Source: Halobacteriovoraceae bacterium
Lineage (GTDB): Bacteria > Bdellovibrionota > Bacteriovoracia > Bacteriovoracales > Bacteriovoracaceae
Assembly (NCBI GenBank): GCA_963719505.1
Contig: CAVRCF010000005.1
Location: forward strand, 1,022,369 to 1,086,368
DNA: 64,000 nt
Direction: 5' to 3'
Shown here in pieces: positions 30,183 through 47,482 of the stretch. Every line of letters starts with the position of its first letter. Position 1 is the stretch's first letter. The translations under genes were made by a program, and so were the position numbers. The notes under the pieces are model-generated. The model was not told the DNA's origin and ran no database searches. It worked only from the letters and a program-made list of their open reading frames with translations.

Positions 30183-32330
30183 TTAAAACAGAGGTTTTTT
30201 TCTCTTTTTCTTCTTCGTTCGTCCTCGATTGAGATTAACCCTGACGCCCACGCCAACAGTTGGTCCAATATTGGAATCATATCTATAATTAACTCCAACG
30301 CTTGTTCTCGGAGTTGCTTGATAGTACAGGCCGGAATTAAATTCCCACTCAGGACTGTCACTAATACCAAACGCTCCTCTTCCAGCAAAATCAATGCTAA
30401 CTCTTTTGGTTATTGGAAACATTTTGGAGAGCGAAACAATTAACTTACCATCGGATCTCACATGAGTTTTCACTTCTACCCTTAACGGTATGGTGTATGC
30501 GGCACCAAGCACACTGTGCATTTGACCATCATCATACTCAACACCGGCATAAATGTTTAAGAAGCGATCAATATACCGTTTAAATAATAATTCACCATCA
30601 AGGTTGTTCAGATCATACTGATCCATCTCTAAGTTTATATCAACTTGATACTTACCTTTAGATATTTTGACTTCTAATTCAGAAGAGTTTGTTGCAACTC
30701 CAAGTTCAGCACTAGTGAAAGCAGAATCATCATGAGTCATGTAGCGAGTCCATCTTCTTTCATTTTCAACAAGTGTATCTGGTCTTTTGAAGTTTTCGTA
30801 CTTAACCAATCTCGCCATTCCCATCTTCATGTGGTAGAGGTTGTGACAGTGTAAAAACCAAATTCCCGGTTCATTTGCATGAAATTCAATTGTGATCTCT
30901 CCCATTGGTGGAACATCTACAGTATGGAATTTTGGAGCAAAATGACCTTGACCGTTTAGCACTCTAAAGAAGTGACCATGAAGGTGCATCGGATGATGCA
31001 TCATCGTTTTATTTACATATTTAATTCTAACAACTTCATTATATTTAACCATCAAGTATTTATCTTCAGAAAACGCTTTACCGTTAATCGTCCAGTTGTA
31101 TCGGTCCATATCTCCGTTTAATTCTAAAGTGTAGTCTCTTCTAGGAAGCGACATATCAAACATTGTCATTTTTGGAGATTTAATATCTTTGTAGTTTAAT
31201 CTTTTTGTCATTGGCATCTGCTCAATCTCTTCTTGAGAAACTTTCATTGTATGGCCATCGTGTCCACCACCGTGACCTCCACCGTCGCCCATACCACCAC
31301 CATGATCCATATCACCCATACTATATGGACTTGGTCTCATTTTCATGGGTACTTTTTCAATATGATGACCTTTTCCTAAAATTAAACTTCCCGCTCCAGT
31401 AATATCTTGGGCCGTAGCTTTAAACTCTAAAGCTTTATGTGCTGGCATAGTAAAAATAACATCGTAAGTCTCAGCTATACCGATTAATATTTCGTTTACC
31501 TCAAGAGGTTGAATTTCAACTCCATCTTTTGTAATGACTTTGAAGTTAAATAATTTTCCAAGGTTGGCGTAAAAGTAAGTTGAAGCTGAAGCATTTATAA
31601 GACGCAGTCTAACTGTTTCGCCAGCTTTTATATTCATTAGGTGTTGTTGTTGTTTACCATTAATTAAAAAAGCATCATACCCAACATCACTCAAGTCCAT
31701 AGGACCCATTTTAGTCCATTCACTTTTAACATAATCCCAAAACTTACCTGCTCTTATGGCACTGTAAATAGAGGCATCTGTGTTTTTCTTATAAACGTAA
31801 TAATCTCCATCCATCTTTAAGTTAGCTAGAACTTGATCTGGATGTTCATTAGTCCAATCACTCATTACGACTTCAATATCATGGTCTGTTTTAAATCTGT
31901 CATGATCGTCTTCAATTACGATTGCACCGTATAGTCCTCTTTGCTCTTGAAGTTCAGTATGTGAGTGATACCAAAATGTTCCCGTATGAATTAATGGGAA
32001 TTCAAAAACATGAGTTTTCCCCGGTTCAATAATAAGCGTATTGGAGAACTGCGGTCCATCTTGATCCCAAGGTACTAATAAGCCATGCCAGTGAAGAGTC
32101 GTTGGTTCATCAGTTTTATTATTAACTGTAATTAGGGCCGTATCACCTTTACTAAATTTTAAGGTTGGAGCAGGGATTGATCCATTAATGGCCAAAGCGT
32201 GCTTAACCTCAACTCCAGTGAAATTGACTGTTTTGTGTTCTACATTTAGTTCGTATTCTACAATCTTTGCAAATGAACTAAAACTTAGAAGAAGTGCTAA
32301 TAATAAGAAAAATTTATTCGAGATAAACAT
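30183..32330 (-). CDS. Multicopper oxidase (CopA/PcoA type) fused to a C-terminal CopB-like beta-barrel domain
   Basis: Signal peptide. Copper ligand motifs LHWHG, WYHSH, HPMHLHGH and HCHNLYHMKMGM. A Met/His/Gly-rich insert MGDMDHGGGMGDGGGHGGGHDGH. About 200 extra C-terminal aa have alternating beta-strand patterns resembling CopB (FLNIYAGVEYDD...GVNYRYDSNIGPTVGVGVRV) and end in F. Confidence 0.85.
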   Translation of the reverse strand: MFISNKFFLLLALLLSFSSFAKIVEYELNVEHKTVNFTGVEVKHALAINGSIPAPTLKFSKGDTALITVNNKTDEPTTLHWHGLLVPWDQDGPQFSNTLIIEPGKTHVFEFPLIHTGTFWYHSHTELQEQRGLYGAIVIEDDHDRFKTDHDIEVVMSDWTNEHPDQVLANLKMDGDYYVYKKNTDASIYSAIRAGKFWDYVKSEWTKMGPMDLSDVGYDAFLINGKQQQHLMNIKAGETVRLRLINASASTYFYANLGKLFNFKVITKDGVEIQPLEVNEILIGIAETYDVIFTMPAHKALEFKATAQDITGAGSLILGKGHHIEKVPMKMRPSPYSMGDMDHGGGMGDGGGHGGGHDGHTMKVSQEEIEQMPMTKRLNYKDIKSPKMTMFDMSLPRRDYTLELNGDMDRYNWTINGKAFSEDKYLMVKYNEVVRIKYVNKTMMHHPMHLHGHFFRVLNGQGHFAPKFHTVDVPPMGEITIEFHANEPGIWFLHCHNLYHMKMGMARLVKYENFKRPDTLVENERRWTRYMTHDDSAFTSAELGVATNSSELEVKISKGKYQVDINLEMDQYDLNNLDGELLFKRYIDRFLNIYAGVEYDDGQMHSVLGAAYTIPLRVEVKTHVRSDGKLIVSLSKMFPITKRVSIDFAGRGAFGISDSPEWEFNSGLYYQATPRTSVGVNYRYDSNIGPTVGVGVRVNLNRGRTKKKKRKKPLF

Positions 32331-32578: not shown

Positions 32579-32863
32579 TTATTTACAAGTATTTTTAATA
32601 ATTTTCATTAGTTCATCAATTTTCTCATCAATATCTTTTTTATCATTTTTCATAGCCGCATCTTTCACACACCAATTGAGGTGTTCTTCTAAAATAATAA
32701 ACTCAATGGACTTTAGAGCACTTCTAATTGCTTTAATCTGATTGATAATATCAACACAATATTTTTCATTTTCAATCATGGCTTTGATACCACGAACTTG
32801 GGCTTCAATTCGATTGATTCGCGTTATTTGTTGTTTATGGTTTGCACCAACTTTTTCTTTCAT
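32579..32863 (-). CDS. csoR: CsoR-family copper-sensing repressor
   Basis: 94 aa. RINRIEAQVRGIKAMIE, with a C...H...C ligand set (EKYCVD, EEHLNWC). Confidence 0.85.
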   Translation of the reverse strand: MKEKVGANHKQQITRINRIEAQVRGIKAMIENEKYCVDIINQIKAIRSALKSIEFIILEEHLNWCVKDAAMKNDKKDIDEKIDELMKIIKNTCK

Positions 32864-33049: not shown

Positions 33050-33751
33050 TTGTCTATGCAAAAAGAGTTAGATATTAAGACTAATGGTCGATTTGATTCA
33101 TTAGATCATATAAAAGCAATTGCTGTCATCATGATGATTATCTATCATCTATTTTTTGATCTTAGCTATTTTCGTTTGGTTGGGTTTAATGTTGAACGTG
33201 AGACTTTTTGGGTATTACAACCCAAGATCATTGTTTTTCTTTTTCTCATGTCCGCAGGTATAAGTTTATCTATAGTTCACTCAAAAAGTATAAATTGGAA
33301 AAAAATATTTCATAGGACTATTAAATTACTGGTCGTTGCCTTATCAATAAGTGTCGTCACTTATTTTATTTTTCCCACGAGGTGGGTATATTTTGGTGTC
33401 ATTCACAACATAGCAATTTCATCACTTATTTGTTTAGCATTTTTAGGAAAACCAAAACTCTCGCTTTTCGTTGGATTGTCTCTACTTTTTCCATCAGTTT
33501 TTTATCAATACGATTATCCACTGCCAAGACTTGTCCCTGCTCCTGTAGATCACGTCGCTCTCCTACCTTGGTTGGGATGCATGCTTATGGGTATATACTT
33601 CTATCACATTGGACTTCATAAGGTGGCGATTCCTGAGCACCGCTTAAAGTCTTTCTTTCGATTCTTATCGAAGAATTCATTATTAATTTATCTAGGTCAT
33701 CAAGCAGTACTCTTTCCTGTGATTTATTTAATCTTTAAACTTAAAAACTAG
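33050..33751 (+). CDS. DUF1624-type (acyltransferase-like) polytopic membrane protein
   Basis: N-terminal RFDSLDHIKAIAVIMMIIYH followed by multiple TM helices. Identification is from memory of the family signature R..slD..RG.a...M...H. Confidence 0.55.
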   Translation: MSMQKELDIKTNGRFDSLDHIKAIAVIMMIIYHLFFDLSYFRLVGFNVERETFWVLQPKIIVFLFLMSAGISLSIVHSKSINWKKIFHRTIKLLVVALSISVVTYFIFPTRWVYFGVIHNIAISSLICLAFLGKPKLSLFVGLSLLFPSVFYQYDYPLPRLVPAPVDHVALLPWLGCMLMGIYFYHIGLHKVAIPEHRLKSFFRFLSKNSLLIYLGHQAVLFPVIYLIFKLKN

Positions 33752-33765
33752 ATTTCTTTCAAGGT

Positions 33766-35058
33766 CTAGTTCTTTTGGGAAATAAAGTACTTTTCATAAA
33801 AGTAAATAATAATCATTAACACCAAAGAAATAACGATAACCGTTGGGTCATCTTTTCCTTTAACATATAAGAGACCTCCCAAGACAACGAAATCAAGTAA
33901 AAGTGAAACCTTTAATATCCAAGAAGAAAATTGAACCTCGTCTCGATTAGCATTTTTAAGCACTCCAAAATGAATAAGCATGTCCATCACTAAATAGAAA
34001 AGTGCTCCCATTGCAGCAATTCTACCAACATCAAATGTAATTGTTAATACACCAGCTAATACCGCGATATAAACAAGTACATGGTTTTGAACTGTTCCAG
34101 GCATTCCAAAGTGTTTATGAGGAACAAGTTCCATATCGGTCAGCATCTTTAGCATTCTTGTCACTGCAAACATACTTGCAATAATTCCAGAAACTGTAGC
34201 AATTAGTGCAACTCCAACAGTTAAGCTGACTCCGAGTTCTCCCAATATTGGTCGCGAAGCCTCGGCTAGTGAATAATTCTTAGCTTTTAATATTTCCTCT
34301 AAACTGAGACTGCTACCTACTGCCAAACTGACAAGTACATAGACGACTGTACATATAGCTAAAGAGATCAAGATTGCACGCCCAACATTCTTTTTGGGTT
34401 CTACAATTTCTCCCCCACTATTGGTAATTGTCGTAAACCCTTTGAAAGCTAAAACTCCAATGGCGATAGCTCCTATAAAGTTTAAAGGTGTCGTTCCCAG
34501 TTCGTTGGCATTAAGCGAAGGGAGTGAAACTCCACTTGCAACTAATCCTCCAACGGCCAACAAAACCAGACCAACGGCTTTTAGAATTGCCATTACAAAT
34601 GAAAAGCTTTGAATTGATTTATTACTAAGTATATTTATTAGAAATGAAAAGACTATAAGTCCTAAGCCCAACCACGGAATATATTCTGCACCAAGGCTTA
34701 TATACTTTGATTGAACAAGATAGTTACCAAATGTTCTTGCGACTAAACTTTGATTAATGATCATCGAGACGAGCATTAGAATTGCACCCCAAGCAGCTAT
34801 AACTCCTTTGCCATAAACCTTGACGAGGATCATTGCAATTCCACCAGACGAAGGATAACTATTAGACATTTTAATGTAAGTATAAGATGTGATGGATGAA
34901 ACAATGCCTGCCCCAATAAATGCCCACATCAATAAATTTCCAGCGTAGTTGGCTATTTGGCCAGTTAGAGCAAAGACTCCAGCACCAATCATTACACCAG
35001 TGCCCATTGAAACGGCACCAAGCAAAGAAATATTACTTTTTGAATCAGACTTTTCCAA
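33766..35058 (-). CDS. APC-superfamily amino acid/polyamine permease
   Basis: 430 aa with about 12 TM helices. N-terminal SLLGAVSMGTGVMIGAGVFALTG is typical of APC transporters. TTG start. Confidence 0.8.
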   Translation of the reverse strand: MEKSDSKSNISLLGAVSMGTGVMIGAGVFALTGQIANYAGNLLMWAFIGAGIVSSITSYTYIKMSNSYPSSGGIAMILVKVYGKGVIAAWGAILMLVSMIINQSLVARTFGNYLVQSKYISLGAEYIPWLGLGLIVFSFLINILSNKSIQSFSFVMAILKAVGLVLLAVGGLVASGVSLPSLNANELGTTPLNFIGAIAIGVLAFKGFTTITNSGGEIVEPKKNVGRAILISLAICTVVYVLVSLAVGSSLSLEEILKAKNYSLAEASRPILGELGVSLTVGVALIATVSGIIASMFAVTRMLKMLTDMELVPHKHFGMPGTVQNHVLVYIAVLAGVLTITFDVGRIAAMGALFYLVMDMLIHFGVLKNANRDEVQFSSWILKVSLLLDFVVLGGLLYVKGKDDPTVIVISLVLMIIIYFYEKYFISQKN

Positions 35059-35110
35059 AATAGGCTCCTCAATAAAATAGATAAAAACGTCAATAAATTC
35101 TTCTTAGAAG

Positions 35111-35129
35111 TATACACCACGGGGGTATA
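35111..35129. promoter_or_regulatory. CsoR-type operator candidate, box 3
   Basis: TATACACCACGGGGGTATA, 53 bp upstream of the APC permease start. Confidence 0.55.
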
Positions 35130-35185
35130 TCTGTCATTTTAAGAAGTTATCTAGTTTTCTAAACATTTTATAGTTTCACCTCAAC

Positions 35186-36052
35186 TCACATTGAAGAAAT
35201 TTGATCTACTGTTTCAAGTTTTAAGTTTTTATTTTCACAAGACTTATTCAATAGCCAACCAAAGATTCTTCTTCTTTGACTTCCAAAGTTAATCTCAGGA
35301 TGAAACTGTGTTCCAAGAATAGGTCTATTTTCAAACTCCATTGACTCAGCTATTTGTCCGCTATTTGAAAAAGAAGTTAACTTTATTTTTGGCCATCTTT
35401 CTTTTTTAAATTGATTAAAATAATCTACACGAACACCTTGATGGTGATACTTATAGCCTCGAAAGTGAGAATACTTTAATATTGATTTAATCAGGGAAGG
35501 TCCTTCATTTAAGCGAACTCTATCAAAAAGATATCTACGGTTTTTAATACCAAGTTCTTCTTTAATATCGACGTAAAGTGGAATCCCTTGGGATACCGCA
35601 AGCATCTGCATCCCACGACAAATTCCGAGTACAGGAAGACTCTTATAGTTTGAGTTAGCAAAATAACTTTTTAATACATCTCTTTCAAAGGGATCGCGAA
35701 TCTCACCTTCAGTACTATAGTCAACAAGAGAATCCAGCTGTTCGATTCTGGCCCTTAAATCAGGCTCTACATTTGCTGTATACAATTTGGGATTTATATC
35801 TGCACCACCAGGAATAACAATTCCATCAATATCAGAGAAGTCTGATTGGATCTGTTTTTTGTACATATCGACAATTTCAATTTTATAACCATACTTACGG
35901 GCTATCTTTTTTAAAGCTCTCCCATAGAAATATTTACATTTTGTCGTACAACCAATTTTTAGAACTTCATTTTTTGGAAGCTTACAGGTTTGGTCATGGG
36001 CCAATAAAAAAGAAGACTGAATCAATAGCGAGAAACTTAAAATTTTATACAT
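35186..36052 (-). CDS. Secreted class-I glutamine amidotransferase / peptidase C26 (gamma-glutamyl hydrolase-like)
   Basis: Signal peptide. GGADINP, the nucleophile elbow LGICRGMQML, and GTQFHPE. Confidence 0.8.
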   Translation of the reverse strand: MYKILSFSLLIQSSFLLAHDQTCKLPKNEVLKIGCTTKCKYFYGRALKKIARKYGYKIEIVDMYKKQIQSDFSDIDGIVIPGGADINPKLYTANVEPDLRARIEQLDSLVDYSTEGEIRDPFERDVLKSYFANSNYKSLPVLGICRGMQMLAVSQGIPLYVDIKEELGIKNRRYLFDRVRLNEGPSLIKSILKYSHFRGYKYHHQGVRVDYFNQFKKERWPKIKLTSFSNSGQIAESMEFENRPILGTQFHPEINFGSQRRRIFGWLLNKSCENKNLKLETVDQISSM

Positions 36053-36200: not shown

Positions 36201-36217
36201 ATACACTATGGGGGTAT
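36201..36217. promoter_or_regulatory. CsoR-type operator candidate, box 4
   Basis: ATACACTATGGGGGTAT lies between divergent peptidase C26 (start 36052) and the CxxCH lipoprotein (start 36232). Confidence 0.55.
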
Positions 36218-36231
36218 GCTATAAAACGAAT

Positions 36232-36621
36232 ATGAGAAGATCTATGAAACAATTACTTGTCATTACTACTCTATCGCTGATGACTTCTTGCTATCAAGAA
36301 GTCAATTCCAATAGCTTTGACGACCGCTACTCAGTGTCTAATGGTATTGATACTAGTACAGCAAATGGTAAAAGACTCTCCGATGCATATGATGTCTTAA
36401 GTAATAAATGCATGAATTGTCACACTGGTTATCATAATAATTGGTCAGATTTTACTACTGATTCAAAGTGGATAGAAGCAAACCTCGTTGAGTCCAATAA
36501 TGCTTATCTCTCATCACTGGTGCTTCGAATGAAAAACACTGGTGGAAATATGCCTAAAGACAATCCACAAATAAAAGAAGAAGATTTTGATATTATTATT
36601 GAGTGGATCGATAATATTTAA
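36232..36621 (+). CDS. Small lipoprotein with one CxxCH motif (cytochrome c-like domain)
   Basis: Lipobox LSLMTSC, CMNCH, later GGNMPKD..EEDFDIIIEWI. The track ORF begins at 36208, inside box 4, so ATG 36232 or 36244 is preferred. Confidence 0.6.
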   Translation: MRRSMKQLLVITTLSLMTSCYQEVNSNSFDDRYSVSNGIDTSTANGKRLSDAYDVLSNKCMNCHTGYHNNWSDFTTDSKWIEANLVESNNAYLSSLVLRMKNTGGNMPKDNPQIKEEDFDIIIEWIDNI

Positions 36622-37436
36622 AAATAAGTTCTTAAATCCAACCCCCAAAAGCTAGATGGATACTCATTAAGACTTCCTAGTGTGATCGCAAATGATATGT
36701 TCTCAAAACTCCATTCTCCAGAGAATTGATATCCAAAAGAGAAACTCTCTTCCCCATCAATTCTTCCTCCTGAAGGAGCATTATAGTCGCCTCGTTTAAA
36801 TAAAAGAGGAATACCAAACTTAACAAAGACTCTGTCTTTTGGTCGCCAAATAAGACTTGTCATAGACATCAATGCATCAACTGGAATGTCGCTTTGGATA
36901 AACTTTATACTATTTGAATCTTCGCCAACTGTTGCTGTGAGGTAAGCATAGCAAAGACTCGACTCAATTCCCCATAAGGCATTCATTTTTCGATAGCCAC
37001 CACCTAAACATGGGCCTCTTTCTTTAGAGTTTAGAGAAGTTACATTTCCAGAAGAGTCTTTTAGTTCAAGGTCATAGTTCCAAGTTAGATAACTCAGACT
37101 AACAAAGTAGTCTGAGTTAAATTTACTTCTATTAAACTTATCAAGTTCTACATCGTAGAGTTCATATAGTACTTCAAAGTCATACTCATCACTTTGCTCA
37201 AATGAGTCTGATTCCTCAAGCATACTGAATAGCTCTTGAAAAACAGAGGACGAAGGCTTTGTAACACCTCTTTGGATCTCTACCAGTTGTGTTTCAATCT
37301 CATGATAAAAGCTTTGTTGATTTTTAGCCTCTAGTGAGCTTGCTATAGCGGAGCTCACCTGAACAAAAGTAAAAAAAGCAATAAATATATAAATCGATCT
37401 TAAAACCATAAATGTAATTGTCCTGCAAAATCCCAA
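36618..37436 (-). CDS. Putative outer-membrane beta-barrel protein
   Basis: Signal peptide (from ATG 37409: MVLRSIYIFIAFFTFVQVSSAIA). Alternating-hydrophobicity strands. C-terminal LDLRTYF ends in an aromatic residue. Confidence 0.45.
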   Translation of the reverse strand: MGFCRTITFMVLRSIYIFIAFFTFVQVSSAIASSLEAKNQQSFYHEIETQLVEIQRGVTKPSSSVFQELFSMLEESDSFEQSDEYDFEVLYELYDVELDKFNRSKFNSDYFVSLSYLTWNYDLELKDSSGNVTSLNSKERGPCLGGGYRKMNALWGIESSLCYAYLTATVGEDSNSIKFIQSDIPVDALMSMTSLIWRPKDRVFVKFGIPLLFKRGDYNAPSGGRIDGEESFSFGYQFSGEWSFENISFAITLGSLNEYPSSFWGLDLRTYF

Positions 37437-38548
37437 GAGTCATCAGTAACTGAATTGGGGCTATAACTTTTCGTGTTGTACAAATCAATTCGTAACTCAA
37501 CACCCTGGACAAGGAAATACTGTAATCCAGGGCCAAGTCTATATGTTTCGGATTCCAAAGTTACATCTGGTTGAAAGTATTCACCTGTCACAAATAGATA
37601 TGTTCCCCTTCGAAGTAGAATGTGGTTTTGAACAAAAGCAAAGGAGCTCTCAACTTGTTCCTGAGTTGCCAAAAATTTCTGTCTCTTTCTTCCAAGTTCC
37701 ACTAAAATACTCGAGCCTTTGGAGAGACCAAACTTTCCATGAACAGAAAGTAAAGTATTTTCAATATAGTCAGATGTTGAGTTTAAAAATGAAAGACCTG
37801 GCTTTGATGAATTTGAAAAGTTATATTCTAATTTTGTTGAAAAACCTTTTTGTCGAAGATCTTCAGACTGGTACAAACTTCCAATAAATCCGTTGACTCC
37901 TATCTCATATTTATCTTCGTTAAAATGTAGCAATACTCCGTGTGATTGATCGTTTTGAGCTAGCTCAGTGACAGATCGACTAAAGGCAATATGATCTGGG
38001 ACTCTAATCCCATAAACCTTATCCATCATTCCAATATAGAAACCAAAGTTATTAGTTGGTCTTAGACCTATATAATGTTCTCTGGATCGATAATTTCCAA
38101 CATCCTCTCCTTTTTGTGACCTAGGTGTAGGCGCGTAGCCATAGCTAATTGATGCAATATACTTATCATTTCCCTGGAGCCGAAAAACAGTATTGATGTC
38201 AGCTTGCATGTGTATATATTCAGCCTCACTACCGCCTTTATCTATATTTCTCTTCAAGCTTAGACCACGGTAATTTACCGAAGGTCTAATCCAAGAATTA
38301 AAGGCCTTCATATATAGGAAACCACTATCTTGTGCAATTTCATCCTCAGATTTCTCGGAGTCATGCACCCACCTATCAGAGATGGCCGTCGCAGAAACTG
38401 CTCTTCCATAATCATTTAATGGTCCATTACCATAAGGGTTATAATGGCACGTGAGGCAAGCGTTATAGCCTTGCCCTATAAAATTGGGATAAGAATAAGA
38501 ATTAAAACTAAGAAGTGTAAAAAAAAGAATGAGTGATTTTTTATTCAT
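37400..38548 (-). CDS. Putative outer-membrane beta-barrel protein with an N-terminal CxxCH motif
   Basis: Signal peptide. GYNACLTCHYNPYGNGPLNDYGRA right after the cleavage region. The body is beta-strand-like and ends QLHLWF. Confidence 0.5.
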   Translation of the reverse strand: MNKKSLILFFTLLSFNSYSYPNFIGQGYNACLTCHYNPYGNGPLNDYGRAVSATAISDRWVHDSEKSEDEIAQDSGFLYMKAFNSWIRPSVNYRGLSLKRNIDKGGSEAEYIHMQADINTVFRLQGNDKYIASISYGYAPTPRSQKGEDVGNYRSREHYIGLRPTNNFGFYIGMMDKVYGIRVPDHIAFSRSVTELAQNDQSHGVLLHFNEDKYEIGVNGFIGSLYQSEDLRQKGFSTKLEYNFSNSSKPGLSFLNSTSDYIENTLLSVHGKFGLSKGSSILVELGRKRQKFLATQEQVESSFAFVQNHILLRRGTYLFVTGEYFQPDVTLESETYRLGPGLQYFLVQGVELRIDLYNTKSYSPNSVTDDSWDFAGQLHLWF

Positions 38549-38569
38549 TTGTTACTTTATACATTAAAA

Positions 38570-38596
38570 AGCACGTCTGCATTGAGAAGACGTGCT
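38570..38596. terminator. Bidirectional hairpin terminator
   Basis: AGCACGTCT/AGACGTGCT 9-bp stem and 9-nt loop, flanked by an A-run and a T-run. It lies between the 94-aa gene stop (38621) and the next gene start (38548). Confidence 0.6.
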
Positions 38597-38620
38597 TTTT
38601 CTATTTTAATTATTTAAAGA

Positions 38621-38905
38621 CTAGTTAGCTCTGTGACACTCAAATGGGTCAGTAGCATCGTGTCTGTGACAAGAATAACCAATACTTGTTCCATCAGTTA
38701 GATAAAGTTTTACACTTACACCTTGGCTCATGGGAGAAGCTTTAATACCTTTGAATAGATTGATCTGTGCAACAGTAGCGTCCGCTTCAAACTGAACTAA
38801 TGAGGCCGTTACTGCTTCACTTGTATCAACTAAAACATCACCAGGATTTGCGAAAAGTCCTGTTGAAATTGTAAGAAAACTTAAAGTTAATAATAATTTC
38901 TTCAT
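38621..38905 (-). CDS. Small secreted protein carrying a C-terminal CHRH-x5-P-[FY]-ECH motif
   Basis: 94 aa with a signal peptide. Ends GYSCHRHDATDPFECHRAN. Paralogous to the C-terminal domain of the upstream gene. Confidence 0.6.
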   Translation of the reverse strand: MKKLLLTLSFLTISTGLFANPGDVLVDTSEAVTASLVQFEADATVAQINLFKGIKASPMSQGVSVKLYLTDGTSIGYSCHRHDATDPFECHRAN

Positions 38906-38924
38906 TCTAAATTCCTTTGTTTAT

Positions 38925-39701
38925 TTATTTATTACCCGTAAGATGGCACTCATACGGGTCACTATCTTCATGTCTGTGACATGAGTAACTCTTTATTTGA
39001 TTTGCTAATGAAATATTAACTGTAACTCCATCTGCTTTTAATACTGACTCTATGCTAAGTAAAGACTGCGAGCCATCATTACTTTGAGAAGCAATAAAAG
39101 ATTTAACGCTGGCACTAACTGCATCTTTTACATTTTGTATATTTGCTAGACCAATAACAGCAGTTGGTTCTTCATCATCATCTCCCCAGTCATCATCCCA
39201 ATCGTCATCATCTTCGTCATCCTCGTCGCTAGTTGGACATTCTGATGGAATCTGTTGAAGCTCATCTTTAGGTGCACAAGCTTCAATCCATTTTTTTATA
39301 AAATCAATTTCTTCCTGCTGAAGTGATCCTTCAATTGGCATATCTCCACTTTTGACCGATAAAAACAAGCGACTAATCTGAGGTTTTCCTTTAACCAATA
39401 AAGGAACAAACCTATCAATCATTGCTTTCTCATAAGTAGAAAAGTCAATAGGATCGTTTACAGGTTTTGCATCGGGACCAGAGTGACAAGACATACACTT
39501 TGGTTTTAAAATGTATTTCTTTAAAGATTCATAGCTCAGCGGAGCCTCACCTCTAATTAATTGATTATCTCTGACTAAATTATTTGTCTCTACAAACTCC
39601 AACTTACTTGGATTTCTCTCCATACAGCCAAAAGCCAACAGAAAAACGCTAAATATAAAAAAGATATTTGTTTTTTGCATAACTAGACTATATCTCCTCA
39701 A
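38925..39701 (-). CDS. Lipoprotein: CxxCH cytochrome c-like domain, acidic linker, CHRH...ECH domain
   Basis: Lipobox LLAFGC. KPKCMSCHSG...GDMPIEG..EEIDFIKKWIEA. Acidic linker DEDDEDDDDWDDDWGDDDEE. C-terminus SYSCHRHEDSDPYECHLTGNK. ATG 39680 is an alternative start. Confidence 0.6.
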   Translation of the reverse strand: MRRYSLVMQKTNIFFIFSVFLLAFGCMERNPSKLEFVETNNLVRDNQLIRGEAPLSYESLKKYILKPKCMSCHSGPDAKPVNDPIDFSTYEKAMIDRFVPLLVKGKPQISRLFLSVKSGDMPIEGSLQQEEIDFIKKWIEACAPKDELQQIPSECPTSDEDDEDDDDWDDDWGDDDEEPTAVIGLANIQNVKDAVSASVKSFIASQSNDGSQSLLSIESVLKADGVTVNISLANQIKSYSCHRHEDSDPYECHLTGNK

Positions 39702-39715
39702 TTTATTATTTGCAA

Positions 39716-39732
39716 ATACCCAGTAGGGGTAT
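39716..39732. promoter_or_regulatory. CsoR-type operator candidate, box 5
   Basis: ATACCCAGTAGGGGTAT, 15-36 bp upstream of the 38925-39701 gene. Confidence 0.55.
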
Positions 39733-40193: not shown

Positions 40194-40640
40194 ATGAAAA
40201 TCACACTTGCTTTTATTATATTACTAAGTTTCTCAAATGCCTTTGCTCGTTGTTACAATGCAAACCAAATTTCAAGAAGTGCTCATCAACTTGCAAATGA
40301 AGCAAGTAGATTTGACAATGTTATAGACCACATGAATGGCTACTCTCATCTATCAAGGGAAATCCATCAACTAGAAAATGAGGCTAAACATTTTCACAGA
40401 ACAGTGGAACGTGGATCAAGTTGTAACCATATTATAAGAGACTTCAATGATGTTTCTCGAAAATTCCAACATCTATCTAGTTCACTCAGAAGAGCGCACT
40501 CAACTCACCACAACCACCATGTAATGAATGATTTTTACAGCCTCCAACATTCTTTTCAAGACCTAAGATCAGAAGTAATGAGATTACGAGGTGGTGGACA
40601 TCACGGAAATGGCGATCACTGGAAATCTGATAGTCTTTAA
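40194..40640 (+). CDS. Secreted His-rich helical-repeat protein, paralog 1
   Basis: Signal peptide. Repeats AHQLANEASRFDNVID and IHQLENEAKHFHRTVE. His-rich tail HSTHHNHH..GGGHHGNGDH. Confidence 0.6.
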   Translation: MKITLAFIILLSFSNAFARCYNANQISRSAHQLANEASRFDNVIDHMNGYSHLSREIHQLENEAKHFHRTVERGSSCNHIIRDFNDVSRKFQHLSSSLRRAHSTHHNHHVMNDFYSLQHSFQDLRSEVMRLRGGGHHGNGDHWKSDSL

Positions 40641-40677
40641 AAATCAACTTTATAACAATTAAACCTGGAATGTATTT

Positions 40678-41241
40678 ATGAAAAAGATATTACTACTTTT
40701 AACACTTTTAATTTTACCAACACTATCTTTTGCTGGCTGTAACTCATACATGATTGATAACTATGGAGACGGTGAAGTAATACAATCTTTTCGAAGTCGT
40801 GGTTTCATCTTTTCTTGTTACAGAGTTGCTAAAAAGTGTAGACGAGCTCTAGCGTTTTCTCCGGAAGACGCTGTTTGTATCGATTCAAGAGTTTTCGCAT
40901 GGAAAATGGTCACTGAGTTATCTCACGATCTAGAAAAGTCATCAAAGCTACTTCATCGCAACCTAGAAAATATCTTAGGTGATCATGATGAAAGTCAGTC
41001 ACCAGAAGTTAATCACTTAATTGAGTATGCCCATGAACTGTCTGAATCCTCTAAGGAGCTCCATGAAGCCGTTGAGAGATATAGAGTTCAATCTAGAGAC
41101 ACAAGGTCTGAATATAATAAAGTTTTGTTTTATATAAATAAAATAAACGCAACTTTTACACATGACCACTTCTCACATGAAACAGTCGAACTACACATGG
41201 AGATAAAAAAACTTTTTAGAGACTTAAGACGATTTTACTAA
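40678..41241 (+). CDS. Secreted His-rich helical-repeat protein, paralog 2
   Basis: Signal peptide ending SFAGC. Repeats SHDLEKSSKLLHRNLE and AHELSESSKELHEAVE. Confidence 0.6.
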   Translation: MKKILLLLTLLILPTLSFAGCNSYMIDNYGDGEVIQSFRSRGFIFSCYRVAKKCRRALAFSPEDAVCIDSRVFAWKMVTELSHDLEKSSKLLHRNLENILGDHDESQSPEVNHLIEYAHELSESSKELHEAVERYRVQSRDTRSEYNKVLFYINKINATFTHDHFSHETVELHMEIKKLFRDLRRFY

Positions 41242-41269
41242 CTATTAATAAAGAACCAAAGGGTTATAA

Positions 41270-42049
41270 ATGAAGAATCTATTTCAGCCACTACTTATCG
41301 TATTTGTCATGCTTTTAGGAAGTATGTCAGCATATGCGCATCAAATTACAATTGAAGATCTTAAACTTATTAAAGAGTTCGCCCATGATCTTGAAAAAGA
41401 ATCTAAAAAGCTTCACGATCAAGTTGAGTTGATCATTGCAACACCTACTCAAAATGATGAGGAACTGATTGAGCAACTTCATCTTTTTGAGAAATCAGCA
41501 AAACGATTCCATATGGATGTTGAAAGTCACTACTCACAGCCAATGCTTACTAGAAATAAATTCTTCGAACTAATGACCCAATATAATATTGTGTCCAGAA
41601 CGATTGAGGAATTTAATATTTACTCGCAAGTTGAAAACCAATATCTTGGAATTCTCTCATTAGTTGAATCGATAAACATCTATTATAACTTCTGGAACTA
41701 TATTCAAATAAAAGAGATCGCTCATCACATTAACAAAGTATCTAGCAAGATTTATCGCGCAATAGACTCAGATTTAACGGGTGGACGAACTTCACACGAA
41801 CGAGGAGCACTGAGAGCATTGAATAATTTCACACTCGCTTCTCATGATTTTCATAATGGAGTGGAAGATAACTTCAGCTCTCCAGAGAATACAAGAGTGA
41901 CACTAGCTCAACTTCTAGACTCACACTTTGATGCTGAATTTGAACTGGATTACATATCTGTATCTCCATTACTTATGAATGCTTTCATTGATTTAAAAGT
42001 TGACCTAAGAAAGTTACAAGAAATATATAAATGGAATTGGTACTTATAA
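41270..42049 (+). CDS. Secreted His-rich helical-repeat protein, paralog 3
   Basis: Signal peptide. Four repeats: AHDLEKESKKLHDQVE, LHLFEKSAKRFHMDVE, AHHINKVSSKIYRAID, LASHDFHNGVE. Confidence 0.6.
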   Translation: MKNLFQPLLIVFVMLLGSMSAYAHQITIEDLKLIKEFAHDLEKESKKLHDQVELIIATPTQNDEELIEQLHLFEKSAKRFHMDVESHYSQPMLTRNKFFELMTQYNIVSRTIEEFNIYSQVENQYLGILSLVESINIYYNFWNYIQIKEIAHHINKVSSKIYRAIDSDLTGGRTSHERGALRALNNFTLASHDFHNGVEDNFSSPENTRVTLAQLLDSHFDAEFELDYISVSPLLMNAFIDLKVDLRKLQEIYKWNWYL

Positions 42050-42084
42050 AAGTTTCCAACAAATTACTAAGAAAAGGAAAAAAA

Positions 42085-42520
42085 ATGAAACATTTTAATA
42101 TCTTTAAAGTTTTAATTGTACTTATAACTCTAAGCTTAAGCGCTAGTGTACTTGCCTCTGACAATAACTGTCGTGGTACATACGATATGTATGACGACAC
42201 CTGTTATATGGATAATGGAGAATACACCCACTACAATTACGACAATGGAAGAAGACTCATCCATGGAAATAATGGCTCTTTTACTTTACACGACTGGAGA
42301 GGTGGAAGTCATATTGGTAGTCACTCAGGTAGACATTACAATACTCATCAAAGCTACCGATACTCTAGAAATGTTGATCATCGCTACGGACATCAAAATC
42401 GTGGTCAATGGAAGATATGATAATCAAAATCGTGGTCATGGAAGATATGGTAATCAAAATCGCGGACACGGAAGATATGGTAATCAAAATCGTGGACATA
42501 GCCGAAGACACACCTATTAA
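42085..42520 (+). pseudogene. Secreted His/Tyr/Gly/Asn/Arg-rich low-complexity protein, with its frame broken inside a 30-nt repeat
   Basis: ATG 42085 gives the signal peptide MKHFNIFKVLIVLITLSLSASVLA. The frame stops at 42420 (..GHQNRGQWKI). The repeat continues in the +1 frame to 42520 (GRYGNQNRGH units). GGTCAATGG versus GGTCATGG in the other units indicates one extra A at 42407-42408. Confidence 0.5.
42382..42499 (+). repeat. About 4 tandem copies of a 30-nt unit encoding G-R-Y-G-N-Q-N-R-G-H
   Basis: Unit GGAAGATATGGTAATCAAAATCGTGGTCAT with a few substitutions. The first copy is the most diverged. Confidence 0.85.
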
Positions 42521-42794: not shown

Positions 42795-43325
42795 TTAGTT
42801 CTCTTCTTGCCGGAGAATTAGTTTTGAATCCTTAATCCACTTATTTACTTCGAAAATCTCGTTTTCTGTCAGCCCAGAGTCCCAATGTATAATTTTATAT
42901 TTCAATGGAGGCATTTCATCTTTTTTAATAGTTTTAAACAATGCATTTAGGTCATCAACTGGACTACCGTGTCCCCCGAACGGGAAGTCATGAGACATAT
43001 CCATGTGTTTCTTTGCTTCTTCCATATCGTTGTCCATCGTTTGTTTTACACCCGGAATATTATAGTACCAAGGAAGGTCATTATTAACACCGTGACAAGA
43101 AAGACACTTCTTTGCAAATATCTGTTTAACACCGTTTAAATATTTACTATTAATTTGCTCTAAAGACTCTTCTGATGGTCCATTTGAAATAATCTCAAAA
43201 CCATCTGAGTCAAACTCAGTCTGTTCCATTAATGAAGATTCATTATGCCCCCCTTCTCCGTCGGCATAAGCAGAAGAAGAAGAGAATATAAAAATCGTTG
43301 CAAAAATTGTTAGTAGCTTATTCAT
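42795..43325 (-). CDS. Secreted heme-binding-domain (Haem_bd-like, CxxCH) protein
   Basis: Signal peptide. KKCLSCHGVNNDLPWYYNIPGV and DEMPPLKYKIIHWDSGLTENEIFEVNKWIKD. Family assignment is from memory (PF14376-like). Confidence 0.6.
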   Translation of the reverse strand: MNKLLTIFATIFIFSSSSAYADGEGGHNESSLMEQTEFDSDGFEIISNGPSEESLEQINSKYLNGVKQIFAKKCLSCHGVNNDLPWYYNIPGVKQTMDNDMEEAKKHMDMSHDFPFGGHGSPVDDLNALFKTIKKDEMPPLKYKIIHWDSGLTENEIFEVNKWIKDSKLILRQEEN

Positions 43326-43328
43326 TAA

Positions 43329-43751
43329 CTATTTCGCTTTTTTAATTCCATTCACGATAATCATATTCACACTACTACTAGTAAAAACTTTTCCTTTTAC
43401 AGCAACTTGTTCTTCAGCATATTTTAGAAATTTTTTATTTGTTTCTCTCAAGTCGGCATGGCCTTCACCTGAGATTTGATAAATCTTGTTGTCTTTAGTT
43501 AAAATACCTATTGGAAGTCCTTTTTCGGCACAATCTTTAAAGCAATCTTTATGATTCGACCCTTTTGAATCGTGCTTTATATAGCAAGTTAACCCTACTA
43601 GTTGTCCAGAAATTAAAACATCAGCTTTTTCAATTGAATCATGACTTGAACTCGCCGCTTTCCCTTTGGCATGTTCTTCGTCACCATGAGCAAAAACTGA
43701 ACTTGTCGACACCAATACTAATAAAGAAAAGATTGTTAATATTTTATTCAT
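43329..43751 (-). CDS. Secreted 140-aa protein with a His-rich N-terminus, unknown family
   Basis: Start ATG 43751 after GGAGG; the track ORF extension to 43991 runs through box 7. Signal peptide MNKILTIFSLLVLVSTSSVFA followed by HGDEEHAKGK..SSHD. Confidence 0.55.
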   Translation of the reverse strand: MNKILTIFSLLVLVSTSSVFAHGDEEHAKGKAASSSHDSIEKADVLISGQLVGLTCYIKHDSKGSNHKDCFKDCAEKGLPIGILTKDNKIYQISGEGHADLRETNKKFLKYAEEQVAVKGKVFTSSSVNMIIVNGIKKAK

Positions 43752-43772
43752 ACTACCTCCGATGAAAAAACG

Positions 43773-43789
43773 ATACCCCCCAAGGGTAT
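43773..43789. promoter_or_regulatory. CsoR-type operator candidate, box 7
   Basis: ATACCCCCCAAGGGTAT lies between divergent starts 43751 (-) and 43918 (+). Confidence 0.55.
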
Positions 43790-43917
43790 GCCCAAAAAAG
43801 AAAAAATACAATACCTTATCGTATTTAACTGTTATTCGGTAAATATTGATCCTATATTTACGAATTTTCTCCTCAAACGGACCTTTAATTATCAAAGGAA
43901 ACCTAATAAGATTATGT

Positions 43918-45207
43918 ATGAAGAAAGACTCAAATGATCGGAATGAAGAGATAAGCGCAGAAACTCTAAATAAAGGGTGCTCATGCATCACTTTTGATAA
44001 AGAATTACTAAAGTCAAATTTCCCTACAAATTCGCTTAAATTTCATTTATTAGAAAACTTAATCTTAACTCATCCAACAATATTTTCCTCTATAGCTGTT
44101 TTTTTATCTAAAGCGAATTACGAAATAATAACTCAAGTCATTTTTACGATTGAAAAAATAATTAGTTCATCCTTGTATCAAGAACAAAGTTTAAATAGAA
44201 TCTCAGGAATTTCTCCATTTCATTTTGGTCCAAAAGGAGTTTTTATGGGTTACGACTTTCATATCTCGAGTGAAGGTCCAAAACTGATAGAAATCAATAC
44301 AAACGCTGGAGGTGCGCTGTTGAGTCTAGAATTAGCCAAAGCCCAACAGCGCTGTTGCATATCTCAGGACTTATACCACAAGTCTACAATTGAGCTTTCT
44401 AAACTTGAATCTATATTTATCGAAATGTTTATTAACGAGTGGAAAAGTCAAAAGGGTAATATAAAAATGGGATTAGTCGCAATTGTCGACAATGAACCTG
44501 AATCACAATTTCTCTATCCAGAGTTTCAATTATTTCAATACCTATTTTCAGAATATAGTATTCGCTCAATTATAGTTGCCCCTCGTGACTTAAAATGGAC
44601 AAATGGAAATCTAACCTTCGGCAATGAAGTAGTCGATCTCGTCTACAATAGGTTAACCGATTTTTATTTCGAAGAAGAAGAAAATAGTGATCTTCTCAGT
44701 GCTTATAAATCAGGTTCTACAGTTTTTACGCCTTCCCCTATCCATCATGCTCTTTATGCAAACAAGTTAAACCTTATCAAACTTAGTAATAAGCATGCGC
44801 TAGATAAATTAAAGGTCTCCACAAAAGATCAAGAGATACTTTTAAAAGTTATCCCCGAAACGGAAGAAGTTCTAAAAGAAAACAATTTAGAATTATGGAG
44901 TAGAAGAAAATCACTATTTTTTAAACCTATTGCCGGTTATGGTAGTAAAGCTGCCTATCGCGGAGATAAAATCACAAGGAAAGTCTGGGAACACGTACTT
45001 AACAGTAGCTATATCGCTCAAAAAATTGTTCCACCAGGAGAAAGACTTGTAACAGTTGATAATAATAAAACAAACCTCAAGTTAGATTTAAGAGCTTATG
45101 TTTTTGATGGCAAGATACAACTTATGTCGTCACGACTTTATTCCGGTCAGACTACTAACTTCAGAACGGAAGGTGGAGGCTTCGCTCCAGTATTTATAAT
45201 TCCATAA
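43918..45207 (+). CDS. ATP-grasp-fold-like enzyme (family unresolved)
   Basis: GYDFHISSEGPKLIEINTNAGGALL, FFKPIAGYGSKAAYRG and LDLRAYVFDGKIQLMSSRLY..NFRTEGGGFAPV resemble ATP-grasp ligase strands. Start chosen at ATG 43918 (track 43846). Confidence 0.5.
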   Translation: MKKDSNDRNEEISAETLNKGCSCITFDKELLKSNFPTNSLKFHLLENLILTHPTIFSSIAVFLSKANYEIITQVIFTIEKIISSSLYQEQSLNRISGISPFHFGPKGVFMGYDFHISSEGPKLIEINTNAGGALLSLELAKAQQRCCISQDLYHKSTIELSKLESIFIEMFINEWKSQKGNIKMGLVAIVDNEPESQFLYPEFQLFQYLFSEYSIRSIIVAPRDLKWTNGNLTFGNEVVDLVYNRLTDFYFEEEENSDLLSAYKSGSTVFTPSPIHHALYANKLNLIKLSNKHALDKLKVSTKDQEILLKVIPETEEVLKENNLELWSRRKSLFFKPIAGYGSKAAYRGDKITRKVWEHVLNSSYIAQKIVPPGERLVTVDNNKTNLKLDLRAYVFDGKIQLMSSRLYSGQTTNFRTEGGGFAPVFIIP

Positions 45208-45320: not shown

Positions 45321-45888
45321 TTACCAGATATAAGAAATTCCGGCTCCTGCTCCAAAACGGCTTTCATAACTTGTAAAAATGGATAGATTCTTTGTTGCAA
45401 TATATTCAAGGCCCAGGTTCCAGACATAATCTTTTTCCCAAGTAGTTATTATCTGGCAACTGTTCTTTCCAACCAAAATCATTCGTAACTTCCCAGTACC
45501 CATAAATTGCAACTCTTGAAAAAAGTAAGTAATCCACATCGAAAGAGAGTTGAAGGTTTAAATCAGAGTCAATTCTCACATTTGAATCTACAAAGTAAGG
45601 TAAGAGCCATTTAATACCTAACGTTCCAACCGTCTCAGTCGCATCAAGTTCTTCCTCTACCTTATTTTCTGTATTTGCTCCTAAATAAACTCTAAAGTAA
45701 TCAGATAAAAAACGATCATAACTTATATCCGCCTCTAGGTTTTTATTCCAACCGTATTCAGCACCGAGGTTCAATTGATTTCGTGTGTTTGAACTTGTTA
45801 TTTCAATTGAACTATAATGACTTGCAGCTTTTGTCTCGGCCCATGTATACCAATGCTTATCCATGTCTAAAACATTTGATAAGTGCAA
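45321..45888 (-). pseudogene. CopB-like beta-barrel region, split from the MCO gene and internally frameshifted
   Basis: Two overlapping frames (45406-45888 and 45321-45539) together parallel the C-terminal CopB-like domain of the 30183-32330 protein. There is no signal peptide at the ATG 45888 start. Ends GAGAGISYIW. Confidence 0.55.
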
Positions 45889-47482
45889 AATTATCTAACC
45901 TTGAATCTCTCTTGTCTCCATAACTAAAGATTCGCGCCATCCCTCCCTTCATATGGTAGAGAACGTGGCAGTGAAAAAACCAATCTCCCGCTTCATTTGC
46001 TGGAAATTCAATAGTTACTGACTTCATAGGTTCAACGTCTACAGTATGCTTAAGAGGAGAATATTCTCCATTTTTATTTAACACTCTGAAAAAATGTCCG
46101 TGCAGATGCATCGGATGGTGCATCATCGTTTTATTATTTAACACAATTCGAATTACTTCACCTCGTCTAATCTTAATCTTATCGACTTCTGATAAAGTTT
46201 TCCCGTTTAAACTCCAGACATAGCGCCACATATTTCCCGTAAGATTTAATTTAATATTTCTGACATTATTATCAGAGAGGTTTGTTTTGACAGGAGACTT
46301 TAAAATATCATAACTAAATTCTGCCTTATTAGAGTTCATCTTCTCATCCACTTCCATGTCATCACTTTTCATATTATGATCCATCATTTTATGTGATGAG
46401 TGGTCCATCTTTTTCATATTAGACATTGAGTGATCCATTTCCATACCAGAACTCATATCCATGTTGTGATTCATGCCACCTGAGTTTTTCGTTCTCTCAA
46501 TATAATCAGGAGCTTTTACGACCATCGCTTTATGGACTTTACCACGGCCAAGTATTGCAGTGGTAAAACCCGAACCATCTTGAGCCGAAGCCCTAAATTC
46601 AATACTTCCGGCGCTAGGAATTGTAACAATATAATCATAAGTCTCGGCAATTGCATGGAGTACTTTTGATGTCTTAACTGGAACAACATCGACACCATCA
46701 GAGGAAACCAACTTTGCATTAGCATCTCCAATTGTCGTCCAGAAATAAGTTGAAGCTGCTGCATTTATAACTCTAACTCGAACTCTTTCACCGGCTTTTA
46801 ATTCGGGGTACTGAATCCTCTTTTTACCATTAATTAAAAATGCATCATAATAAACATCAGAAATATCTATTCCCGGCATTCTCATTTTCCAAAGCCCTAA
46901 AAGACCGCCTAAGGCTCCATTTGAGATTGCATCAGCGATACTAACAGCCGTTTTCTTTTTTATGCTGTACCAATCACTCCCTCTTTTTAGAGTTCGCAAA
47001 ACCTCATTTGGATTTTCATCTGTCCAATCAGATAGTACAAGCACAAGATCTCTATCATATTTTAACTTTTGATTTTTAGGTTTAATAACAATTGAGCCAT
47101 AAACGCCTTGTTGCTCCTGTAAACCTGTATGCGAGTGATACCAATATGTCCCCGAATGTGATATTGGAAAACGGTATGAAAACGTCTCACCGGGCCTAAT
47201 AGGTGGTGTTGTTAAGTAAGGCACGCCGTCTTGAAAGTTAGGTAAAATGAGCCCATGCCAATGAATAGAGGTCTCAACATCCATATTATTAGTGACATTA
47301 ATCTCAGCAGTGTCCCCCTCTGTGAATGTTAATACCGGTCCCGGAATAGAATCATTTATGGCCATTCCCACTCTTTCTTTACCAGAGAATGAAACATTTT
47401 TTTCATCTATTGTAAGATCATAGCTTTTTGCAAAACTAGAAAGGCTTATAAGAATTGAAAGCATAAGAATGAGTAACTTCAC
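45857..47482 (-). CDS. Multicopper oxidase (second copy, CopA/PcoA type)
   Basis: GTG 47482 after GGAG gives signal peptide VKLLILMLSILISLSSFA. Motifs IHWHG, WYHSH, HPMHLHGH and HCHVLYHMKGGM. Met/His-rich insert MNHNMDMSSGMEMDHSMSNMKKMDHSSHKMMDH. Confidence 0.85.
   Translation of the reverse strand: MKLLILMLSILISLSSFAKSYDLTIDEKNVSFSGKERVGMAINDSIPGPVLTFTEGDTAEINVTNNMDVETSIHWHGLILPNFQDGVPYLTTPPIRPGETFSYRFPISHSGTYWYHSHTGLQEQQGVYGSIVIKPKNQKLKYDRDLVLVLSDWTDENPNEVLRTLKRGSDWYSIKKKTAVSIADAISNGALGGLLGLWKMRMPGIDISDVYYDAFLINGKKRIQYPELKAGERVRVRVINAAASTYFWTTIGDANAKLVSSDGVDVVPVKTSKVLHAIAETYDYIVTIPSAGSIEFRASAQDGSGFTTAILGRGKVHKAMVVKAPDYIERTKNSGGMNHNMDMSSGMEMDHSMSNMKKMDHSSHKMMDHNMKSDDMEVDEKMNSNKAEFSYDILKSPVKTNLSDNNVRNIKLNLTGNMWRYVWSLNGKTLSEVDKIKIRRGEVIRIVLNNKTMMHHPMHLHGHFFRVLNKNGEYSPLKHTVDVEPMKSVTIEFPANEAGDWFFHCHVLYHMKGGMARIFSYGDKRDSRLDNFALIKCFRHG

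Follow-up and report, generated by a model that had tools for sequence, protein, structure and literature searches.

The interval between positions 36201 and 39732 of a 64,000-nucleotide stretch of DNA from a Halobacteriovoraceae bacterium (assembly GCA_963719505.1, contig CAVRCF010000005.1, positions 1,022,369 to 1,086,368; hereafter the window) carries five genes for envelope proteins, bracketed by two CsoR-type operators (36201-36217 and 39716-39732). What is new here is a Cyc2-like fused cytochrome-porin, the product of a gene that we call C, which has a dedicated partner barrel and has been recruited into a CsoR regulon on a mobile island. We read the interval as a copper-derepressed paralogue of a module for electron transfer across the outer membrane that probably oxidizes Cu(I), an interpretation in which our confidence and our doubt are about equal; we infer the covalent attachment of haem, the induction by copper, the substrate and the direction in which electrons would flow. 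All the features listed in an initial annotation of this DNA, made from the sequence, were recovered in their places from the sequence and the list of open reading frames (ORFs). Those of the interval, as revised here, are the following.

36201-36217, unstranded: CsoR-type operator ATACACTATGGGGGTAT, before cytA and divergent from a glutamine amidotransferase (GATase) gene; one mismatch to the search pattern
36232-36621, + strand: cytA, lipoprotein of about 129 residues with the motif of a monohaem class I cytochrome c (CMNCH, axial Met in GGNMP, C-terminal helix)
36618-37409, - strand: B, outer-membrane protein of 263 residues; signal peptide, three periplasmic helices and a predicted 8-stranded barrel ending ..RTYF
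37400-38548, - strand: C, 382 residues, monohaem motif fused to a predicted 16-stranded porin; signal peptide, YPNF...CLTCH head and barrel ending HLWF
38566-38600, - strand: stem-loop between the genes for soluble proteins (E, D) and those for outer-membrane proteins (C, B)
38621-38905, - strand: D, secreted protein of 94 residues ending YSCHRHDATDPFECH (two Cys and three His)
38925-39701, - strand: E, lipoprotein of 258 residues; putative class I cytochrome c domain (CMSCH...SGDMP), poly-Asp/Glu linker and D-like Cys/His domain
39716-39732, unstranded: CsoR-type operator ATACCCAGTAGGGGTAT, directly upstream of E; perfect match to the search pattern

The two larger proteins, of 382 and 272 residues as first called, had been proposed to be beta-barrels, and structure prediction returned a barrel for both. 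For C, AlphaFold2 was run on an alignment of 26 diverse homologues (44-71% identity) and gave 16 strands, with a predicted local distance difference test score (pLDDT) of 75.5 and a predicted template modelling score of 0.76. A Foldseek search with this model returned 16-stranded porins (OmpT, OprP 2o4v, PorB, Omp32 and OprO 4rjw; best E 3e-12, range about 1e-12 to 1e-9), and C is predicted to belong to this structural class. The signal peptide and its cleavage site read MNKKSLILFFTLLSFNSYS, followed by YPNF...CLTCH, and the mature N-terminus reads YPNFIGQGYNACLTCHYNPYGNGPLNDYGRA. Conservation of the CxxCH motif, on which the initial annotation had staked its interpretation, is strict: C31, C34 and H35 are invariant among the 26 homologues, as is the remainder of the head (consensus AYPNFIGxGYxSCLTCHYNPxGNGPLTDYGRA). 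In a survey that took one genome per species and yielded 80 loci, nearly all labelled Bacteriovoracaceae, Halobacteriovorax or Oligoflexia, the C homologue has exactly one CxxCH at 79. M114, H158, H186, H203, H208, H270 and H379, in the barrel part, are also invariant or nearly so. C would be expected to carry covalently bound haem. None of its 819 homologues has a Pfam domain, and scans of C and B against Pfam and NCBIfam matched no family.

A porin fused to an N-terminal monohaem motif is known as Cyc2 (Keffer et al., 2021; PMC8406198), so the suggestion that a barrel with a haem c motif is not a described architecture does not hold for the architecture itself, but it does hold for the copper context. 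Cyc2, a proven haem protein, is an Fe(II) oxidase that joins a monohaem cytochrome to a porin and is found in Acidithiobacillus, Zetaproteobacteria and Gallionellaceae; it is recognized by a signal peptide, one CXXCH, at least 365 residues, a 16-stranded porin modelled on OprO/OprP, AXPXFAR[QK][TY] upstream of CXXCH and PXL downstream of it (PMC8406198). In C we find the signal peptide, the single N-terminal CXXCH, a sufficient length (382 residues) and, in the AlphaFold2 prediction, the 16-stranded porin; moreover, OprP 2o4v and OprO 4rjw, among its structural neighbours, are the same two proteins as named for Cyc2 (PMC8406198). For comparison, we assembled 48 full Cyc2-type ORFs from metagenomes, using a degenerate pattern for the upstream motif; they have the form ..A[IV]P[AS]FAR[QK][YT]xxxCxxCHxxxPxLxxFG.. 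and end in an aromatic residue. The head of C keeps the A-x-P-x-F of these 48 proteins at the mature N-terminus, with identical spacing to CxxCH: the single CxxCH lies exactly 10 residues after the Pro of x-P-x-F and is followed by LNx[FY]G. A length of about 380-450 residues and an aromatic C-terminus are likewise common to both. A hidden Markov model (HMM) of the 48 ORFs, used as a stand-in for the family, matched at a best E of only 0.0018, yet C-family proteins were its top 12 matches among 3744 ORFs; hhalign of the C and Cyc2-type heads gave a P of 1e-4 and a probability of 58%. The null Pfam and NCBIfam scans say nothing on this question, because the motif-defined Cyc2-type proteins also match no model. 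From motif, length and predicted fold, C appears to be Cyc2-like in architecture, and it is possibly a very distant Cyc2 homologue. An HMM of the Cyc2 head alone was discarded as unspecific, since it also matched other CxxCH proteins. A literature search (Cyc2 with Bdellovibrio or with copper resistance, Halobacteriovorax copper, DUF411 cytochrome c, YceI CsoR) found no description of the family.

The partner barrel, B, was called as an ORF of 272 residues from a TTG (36618-37436, - strand); the start kept in homologues is the ATG at 37409 (MVL...). AlphaFold2 (pLDDT 93.2) gives three N-terminal helices and an 8-stranded barrel, for which Foldseek found the Ail/OmpX/OmpA transmembrane domain (E 1.5e-7). 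B is therefore predicted to be a small OmpX/OmpA-like barrel with a helical N-terminal domain, not a large porin. A word-indexed search found 2 relatives of B and full HMMER 112; most are about 360 residues long, with a longer, helical, TPR-like N-terminal domain, B being shortened in the copper-type clade described below. One stretch, ATGGTTTTAA (37400-37409), contains both the stop of C and the start of B: within ..TTA TGG TTT TAA stands ATG GTT TTA. That the same 10 bases encode both explains why, across the family, C ends in ..LWF and B begins with MVL, and indicates a conserved translational coupling of the two genes.

At the surveyed loci, B lies beside C in 62 of 80 by BLAST and in 73 by clustering, and a cytA homologue, in each case with CxxCH and MP, is found near C in about 57-61. 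A YceI-like gene, overlooked in the initial annotation, is near C in about 57-59, mostly as the immediate upstream neighbour of cytA, which it often abuts or overlaps. The conserved unit is thus YceI, cytochrome c, haem-porin and small barrel. At about 75 of 83 loci this core is accompanied by neither copper genes nor CsoR boxes; copper genes, boxes, E and D occur at the closest loci only, namely L001-L005 (62-77% identity) and two that were fetched separately from the survey, L201 (72%) and L202 (58%). The window and these seven loci form a copper-type clade that carries CsoR boxes, a multicopper oxidase, DUF411, CsoR and the Cys/His protein; recombinase genes often adjoin, recombinase or integrase genes being found near L201 and L202. 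The copper-type C proteins group as a single clade in a neighbour-joining tree, and L006 falls within it. The metagenome-assembled genomes (MAGs) that hold L001-L005 also hold a distant, non-copper copy (L067, L014, L015, L064). The co-conservation of haem-porin, partner barrel and cytochrome that had been anticipated is therefore real, but mostly without the copper control that was thought to go with it. Because the core is mostly conserved without copper genes, the module is not a copper system by nature; what the window contains is a paralogue under copper regulation.

Several further features were seen around the non-copper modules. At 30-37 of these loci (L006-L080; for example L077 4908-6203 and L069 3576-5075) the module lies near a secreted protein of about 430 residues with its own CxxCH, a protein of about 500 residues with a twin-arginine signal, and a signal peptidase II-like gene; neither of the two proteins matches Pfam. 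Typical Bacteriovoracaceae-type modules also occur in MAGs labelled Flavobacteriaceae (L070) and Sulfitobacter (L074), which are probably binning or labelling errors.

The copper connection comes from the operators and the repressor. We searched the whole window, on both strands, for ATACCCN4GGGGTAT with at most two mismatches and found eight sites (29896, 33011, 35112, 36201, 39716, 43773, 48379 and 3413, the last of them weak). They amount to 14 strand-matches where 0.44 would be expected, a number that none of 100 shuffles reached. Three features outside the interval belong with these sites.

32579-32863, - strand: CsoR repressor gene; Pfam Trns_repr_metal PF02583, 3.8e-27
48379-48395, unstranded: CsoR-type operator upstream of the YceI gene; the box upstream of YceI in L201 is identical in sequence
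48497-49111, + strand: YceI-like periplasmic protein, fourth member of the core; Pfam YceI, 2.3e-10

The YceI gene of the window lies 12 kb from cytA, yet has kept its own box. The repressor has the Cu(I)-type set Cys36/His61/Cys65 (YC36...EEH61LNWC65); its best match in the Protein Data Bank (PDB) is Streptomyces lividans CsoR 4adz (4e-18), and its top solved relatives are copper CsoRs. In the relatives, a box lies upstream of E in L001-L004, L201 and L202 and directly upstream of C in L005, and a second one lies upstream of YceI-cytA in all seven copper-type loci, whereas about 1.05 Mb of non-copper loci held merely two matches, each with two mismatches. The repressor and the recurrence of the boxes at matching operons bear out the link to copper that had been proposed for the module. 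A search for enriched k-mers upstream of the non-copper modules found no regulatory motif.

Other genes are also associated with boxes. Between those at 33011, 35112 and 36201 lie genes for an HGSNAT-like acyltransferase, an amino-acid permease and a C26/GATase-like protein (33050-36052); in L001, L004 and L201 the stretch from the barrel genes to cytA again includes the acyltransferase and the GATase, both of which may belong to the same CsoR regulon. The perfect box at 43773-43789 lies within the overlap of two ORFs without a family match (43329-43991, - strand, and 43846-45207, + strand), and at least one of them probably starts beyond the box, on its downstream side. The first of these ORFs is followed by the Haem_bd cytochrome gene.

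The periplasmic proteins of the interval include two putative cytochromes. CytA was called as an ORF at 36208-36621 (+ strand); its first ATG is overlapped by the box, and the likely start is the ATG at 36232. That of E is probably the ATG at 39680. The initial annotation had singled out a shared 'MP...EE.D.II.WI' ending (GGNMP...EEDFDIIIEWI in cytA, SGDMP...EEIDFIKKWI in E) as a distinct motif of these CxxCH lipoproteins. Alignment of cytA with cytochromes c6 (1ls9, 1cyi) and c551, which covers the CxxCH, the GxMP and the terminal helix, disposes of this idea: the ending corresponds to the axial-Met loop and the C-terminal helix of an ordinary class I cytochrome c. Since Pfam scores fall below the gathering cut-offs (cytA against Cytochrome_CBB3, 22.8 bits, cut-off 27), membership of this class rests on motif and alignment, on which grounds cytA and the N-terminal domain of E, paralogues of one another (E 2e-8), are assigned as ordinary class I cytochromes c with an axial Met.

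D had been described as a paralogue of the C-terminus of E, and a BLASTP match (E 1e-10) agrees. Both share the invariant ending Y[SAG]CHRHx3[DE]P[FY]ECH, which has no relative in Pfam, NCBIfam or the PDB. PDB sequence searches with D and with E returned no match, and a word-indexed homologue search with D returned the query alone. An HMM of the D family found matches in the seven copper-type loci only and in none of 76 others. Compared with the four-part core, the copper version has two additions, D and E with its polyacidic tail. In the window a D-like domain is also fused to the end of E; in L002-L005, E has no sequence beyond the acidic tail and D is encoded by a gene of its own, and in L001, E keeps part of the D-like tail without the Cys/His motif. 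Judging from its residues, the ending shared by D and E is a plausible candidate for a periplasmic copper site.

The hairpin that the initial annotation placed in this region was found by folding at 38566-38600 (-18.3 kcal/mol, z -4.85 on the coding strand), with runs of A5 and U5 at its flanks; its 9-nt loop had kept it from being detected by a simple terminator scan. A hairpin is also present at the D-C junction in L002 (4163-4202), L003 (6071-6104), L201 (7966-7992) and L202 (7961-7993) and is weak in L004. These hairpins are unrelated in sequence, and only some are followed by a U-run. Most likely, the structure acts as a partial terminator or as a stabilizer of the mRNA, which would give the soluble proteins E and D a higher level than C and B.

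We propose the following mechanism. Binding of Cu(I) to CsoR would free the operators before E-D-C-B, cytA and YceI, and the neighbouring genes for the multicopper oxidases, DUF411, the Haem_bd protein and the P-type ATPase would be derepressed likewise. The haem at the mature N-terminus of C would sit at or in the barrel and exchange electrons with metal ions inside the pore. If Cyc2 is a guide, the reaction would most likely be the oxidation of Cu(I), and possibly of Fe(II) as well. CytA and E would relay the electrons through the periplasm towards the respiratory chain, and D and the tail of E would hold copper. The net result would be a haem-based oxidation of Cu(I) that consumes no O2 where the Cu(I) is oxidized, in addition to the multicopper oxidases, which depend on O2. 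The potential of aqueous Cu(II)/Cu(I) is below those typical of class I cytochromes c. Together with the analogy to Cyc2, this makes oxidation of Cu(I) with inward flow of electrons the most plausible direction. A wider claim would have the island encode the first copper-dedicated porin-cytochrome, in which a Cyc2-like haem-porin works with its small barrel, a YceI-like protein, two class I cytochromes c and a new Cys/His copper-binding domain to oxidize Cu(I), either in the periplasm or at the outer membrane, and to pass electrons to the respiratory chain independently of O2-dependent multicopper oxidases, and which has spread among marine predators on a conjugative element; as a whole we consider this claim doubtful.

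Several observations weigh against a Cu(I)-oxidizing, copper-derepressed module. Not all the hallmarks of Cyc2 are present in C: IGxGY stands in place of the AR[QK][TY] of FAR[QK][TY], and there is no PXL in register (CLTCH-YN-PYG-NG-PLNDYG), LNxYG aligning only after a 3-residue insertion. By the published criteria C is therefore not a member of the Cyc2 family, and the likeness in sequence is marginal (HMM E at least 0.002, with the hhalign probability of 58%). In the model of C, residues 12-55 of the head have a pLDDT below 50, so that the haem head is placed relative to the pore only with low confidence. The locus was found in no RNA sequencing run, its sequence coming only from seawater and biofilm metagenomes. 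The hairpin and U-run between D and C could reduce the transcription that reaches C-B from the boxed promoter of the window. Finally, the module being mostly copper-free, the basic substrate of the core need not be copper.

This last point leads to the rival that survives best, namely that the core serves a housekeeping purpose that has nothing to do with copper (for example the oxidation or acquisition of iron, or a different redox reaction at the surface of the predator). Copper would then induce the island copy only as a replacement for, or a supplement to, a housekeeping copy whose c-type cytochromes do not mature or work well under copper stress. Copper stress has been reported to impair cytochrome c assembly, and the large majority of loci (about 75 of 83) hold the module without any copper gene or box. 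The second, distant copy in the MAGs that carry a copper-type one (L067, L014, L015, L064) and the duplication on the island of the whole core set, not of one gene, are also as expected of a back-up. In the copper clade, however, B is shortened, and D and an acidic-tailed E were gained in the same operon, directly upstream of C-B, which points to adaptation to copper rather than simple dosage. We regard a mere back-up as possible but on the whole unlikely.

It could also be argued that the CxxCH of C binds copper through its Cys and His, the barrel being a haem-free, copper-specific channel for the release or controlled uptake of the metal, like PcoB/CopB or OprC in role, with D and E as periplasmic chaperones. 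The many invariant or nearly invariant His and Met residues in the barrel part of C, the Cys/His-rich D encoded directly upstream and the flanking copper operators would all fit such a channel. The CxxCH and the head, however, are equally invariant in many paralogues without a copper context; the head resembles that of Cyc2, which does bind haem (PMC8406198); the module is always accompanied by a genuine class I cytochrome c; and neither barrel matches Pfam CopB. Taken together, these points make a haem-free channel very improbable. To the idea that the envelope genes are passengers, lying by chance on a mobile element between boxes that govern only the flanking classical copper genes, we give hardly any credence: the region does lie on an element with conjugation genes and a hairpin does separate D from C, but boxes stand immediately upstream of E, cytA and YceI in the window, and their positions recur in seven independent relatives despite rearrangements, in L005 directly upstream of C.

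A copper-regulated electron-transfer module thus remains the reading that we prefer, and Pfam scans of the window identified neighbours that make its surroundings, by gene content, a copper and mercury resistance island. These neighbours and the features on either side of the metal genes are the following.

13575-13650: tRNA-Gly, left of the metal island
24074-25824: MerR/MerT/MerC/thioredoxin
26471-28654: heavy-metal P-type ATPase, beside a YHS protein
30183-32330: multicopper oxidase
42795-43325: Haem_bd protein
45857-47587: multicopper oxidase
47771-48292: DUF411
51604-52542: cation-diffusion facilitator (CDF) transporter
53637-63502: conjugation genes, right of the metal island (TraG/VirB4-like P-loop protein 56064-57938, coupling protein 62123-63502)

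The conjugation genes and the tRNA-Gly suggest that the metal island is probably part of an integrative conjugative element. The GC skew changes sign near 54 kb. The Mer cluster, in the order MerR-MerC-thioredoxin-MerT, lies beside the copper genes; in L201 a MerC gene, and in L202 a Mer cluster, likewise adjoins the module. An ORF of 160 residues (45406-45888) that directly follows the second multicopper oxidase has a weak match to Pfam CopB (E 0.008), which suggests a PcoA/PcoB-like pair. Just beyond the box at 39716, three consecutive genes (40194-42049) encode secreted, helix-rich proteins of 148, 187 and 259 residues, the first with a His-rich C-terminus; they have no family match and no homologue in the 80 related loci. 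A secreted His/Gly/Arg/Tyr-rich protein (42031-42520) ends in a 30-bp tandem repeat (42392-42499; 3.6 copies, 91% match) encoding NQNRGHGRYG units. Its reading frame seems to switch between the ORFs 42031-42420 and 42146-42520, possibly owing to a frameshift or an assembly error.

Bacteria are known to defend themselves against copper with efflux pumps, chaperones and O2-dependent multicopper oxidases. If copper redox chemistry across the envelope also took a haem-based route, this would be a new arm of copper homeostasis, and fused cytochrome-porins would reach beyond lithotrophic iron oxidation. Independently of copper, the analysis shows that YceI, cytochrome c, haem-porin and small barrel make up a four-gene envelope module, which is near-universal in the sampled Bacteriovoracales. 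The haem-porin has over 800 homologues and is covered by no Pfam or NCBIfam model, and the copper-regulated paralogue offers a testable handle on the module. The analysis also counsels caution, in that not every Cyc2-like gene marks iron oxidation.

Several known systems share parts of this arrangement. As in the CsoR regulons of Bacillus subtilis (copZA) and S. lividans (CsoR, PDB 4adz), the repressor has the Cys-His-Cys set, the operators are G/C-tract pseudo-palindromes (TACCC-N4-GGGGTA) and a Cu P-type ATPase is among the targets; unlike in those regulons, the window regulon extends to two multicopper oxidases, several c-type cytochromes and two outer-membrane barrels, and also takes in YceI, a glutamine amidotransferase-like protein and a permease. 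Multicopper oxidases of the CueO/PcoA type, PcoB/CopB and CopG/DUF411 are found on the same island as the module, presumably under common regulation and with the common aim of controlling periplasmic Cu(I), but the chemistry proposed for the module would use haem c and not copper centres and O2. Membership of either barrel in the PcoB/CopB family was ruled out, Pfam CopB (PF05275) matching neither B nor C at E <= 1. In enterobacteria, the YceI gene is paired with a cytochrome b561 gene (yceJ). Here too a YceI-like periplasmic lipid/isoprenoid-binding protein is encoded beside a cytochrome gene, but the partner is a c-type lipoprotein cytochrome, whose gene mostly abuts or overlaps that of YceI.

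The closest parallels are with systems that move electrons across the outer membrane. The MtrAB/MtoAB/PioAB and Geobacter Pcc conduits are alike in the idea that electrons cross by way of a haem-holding barrel and periplasmic c-type cytochromes. In conduits of the MtrAB type, separate multihaem cytochromes are threaded into barrels of 20 or more strands. The window, by contrast, encodes single-CxxCH proteins and predicted barrels of 16 and 8 strands: one haem motif is fused to the 16-stranded porin, and the periplasmic partners would be monohaem class I cytochromes. C differs from Cyc2 in that it is always found with a translationally coupled 8-stranded partner barrel, and with YceI, in that its hosts are predatory Bacteriovoracales and not iron oxidizers, and in that the window copy stands under CsoR operators.

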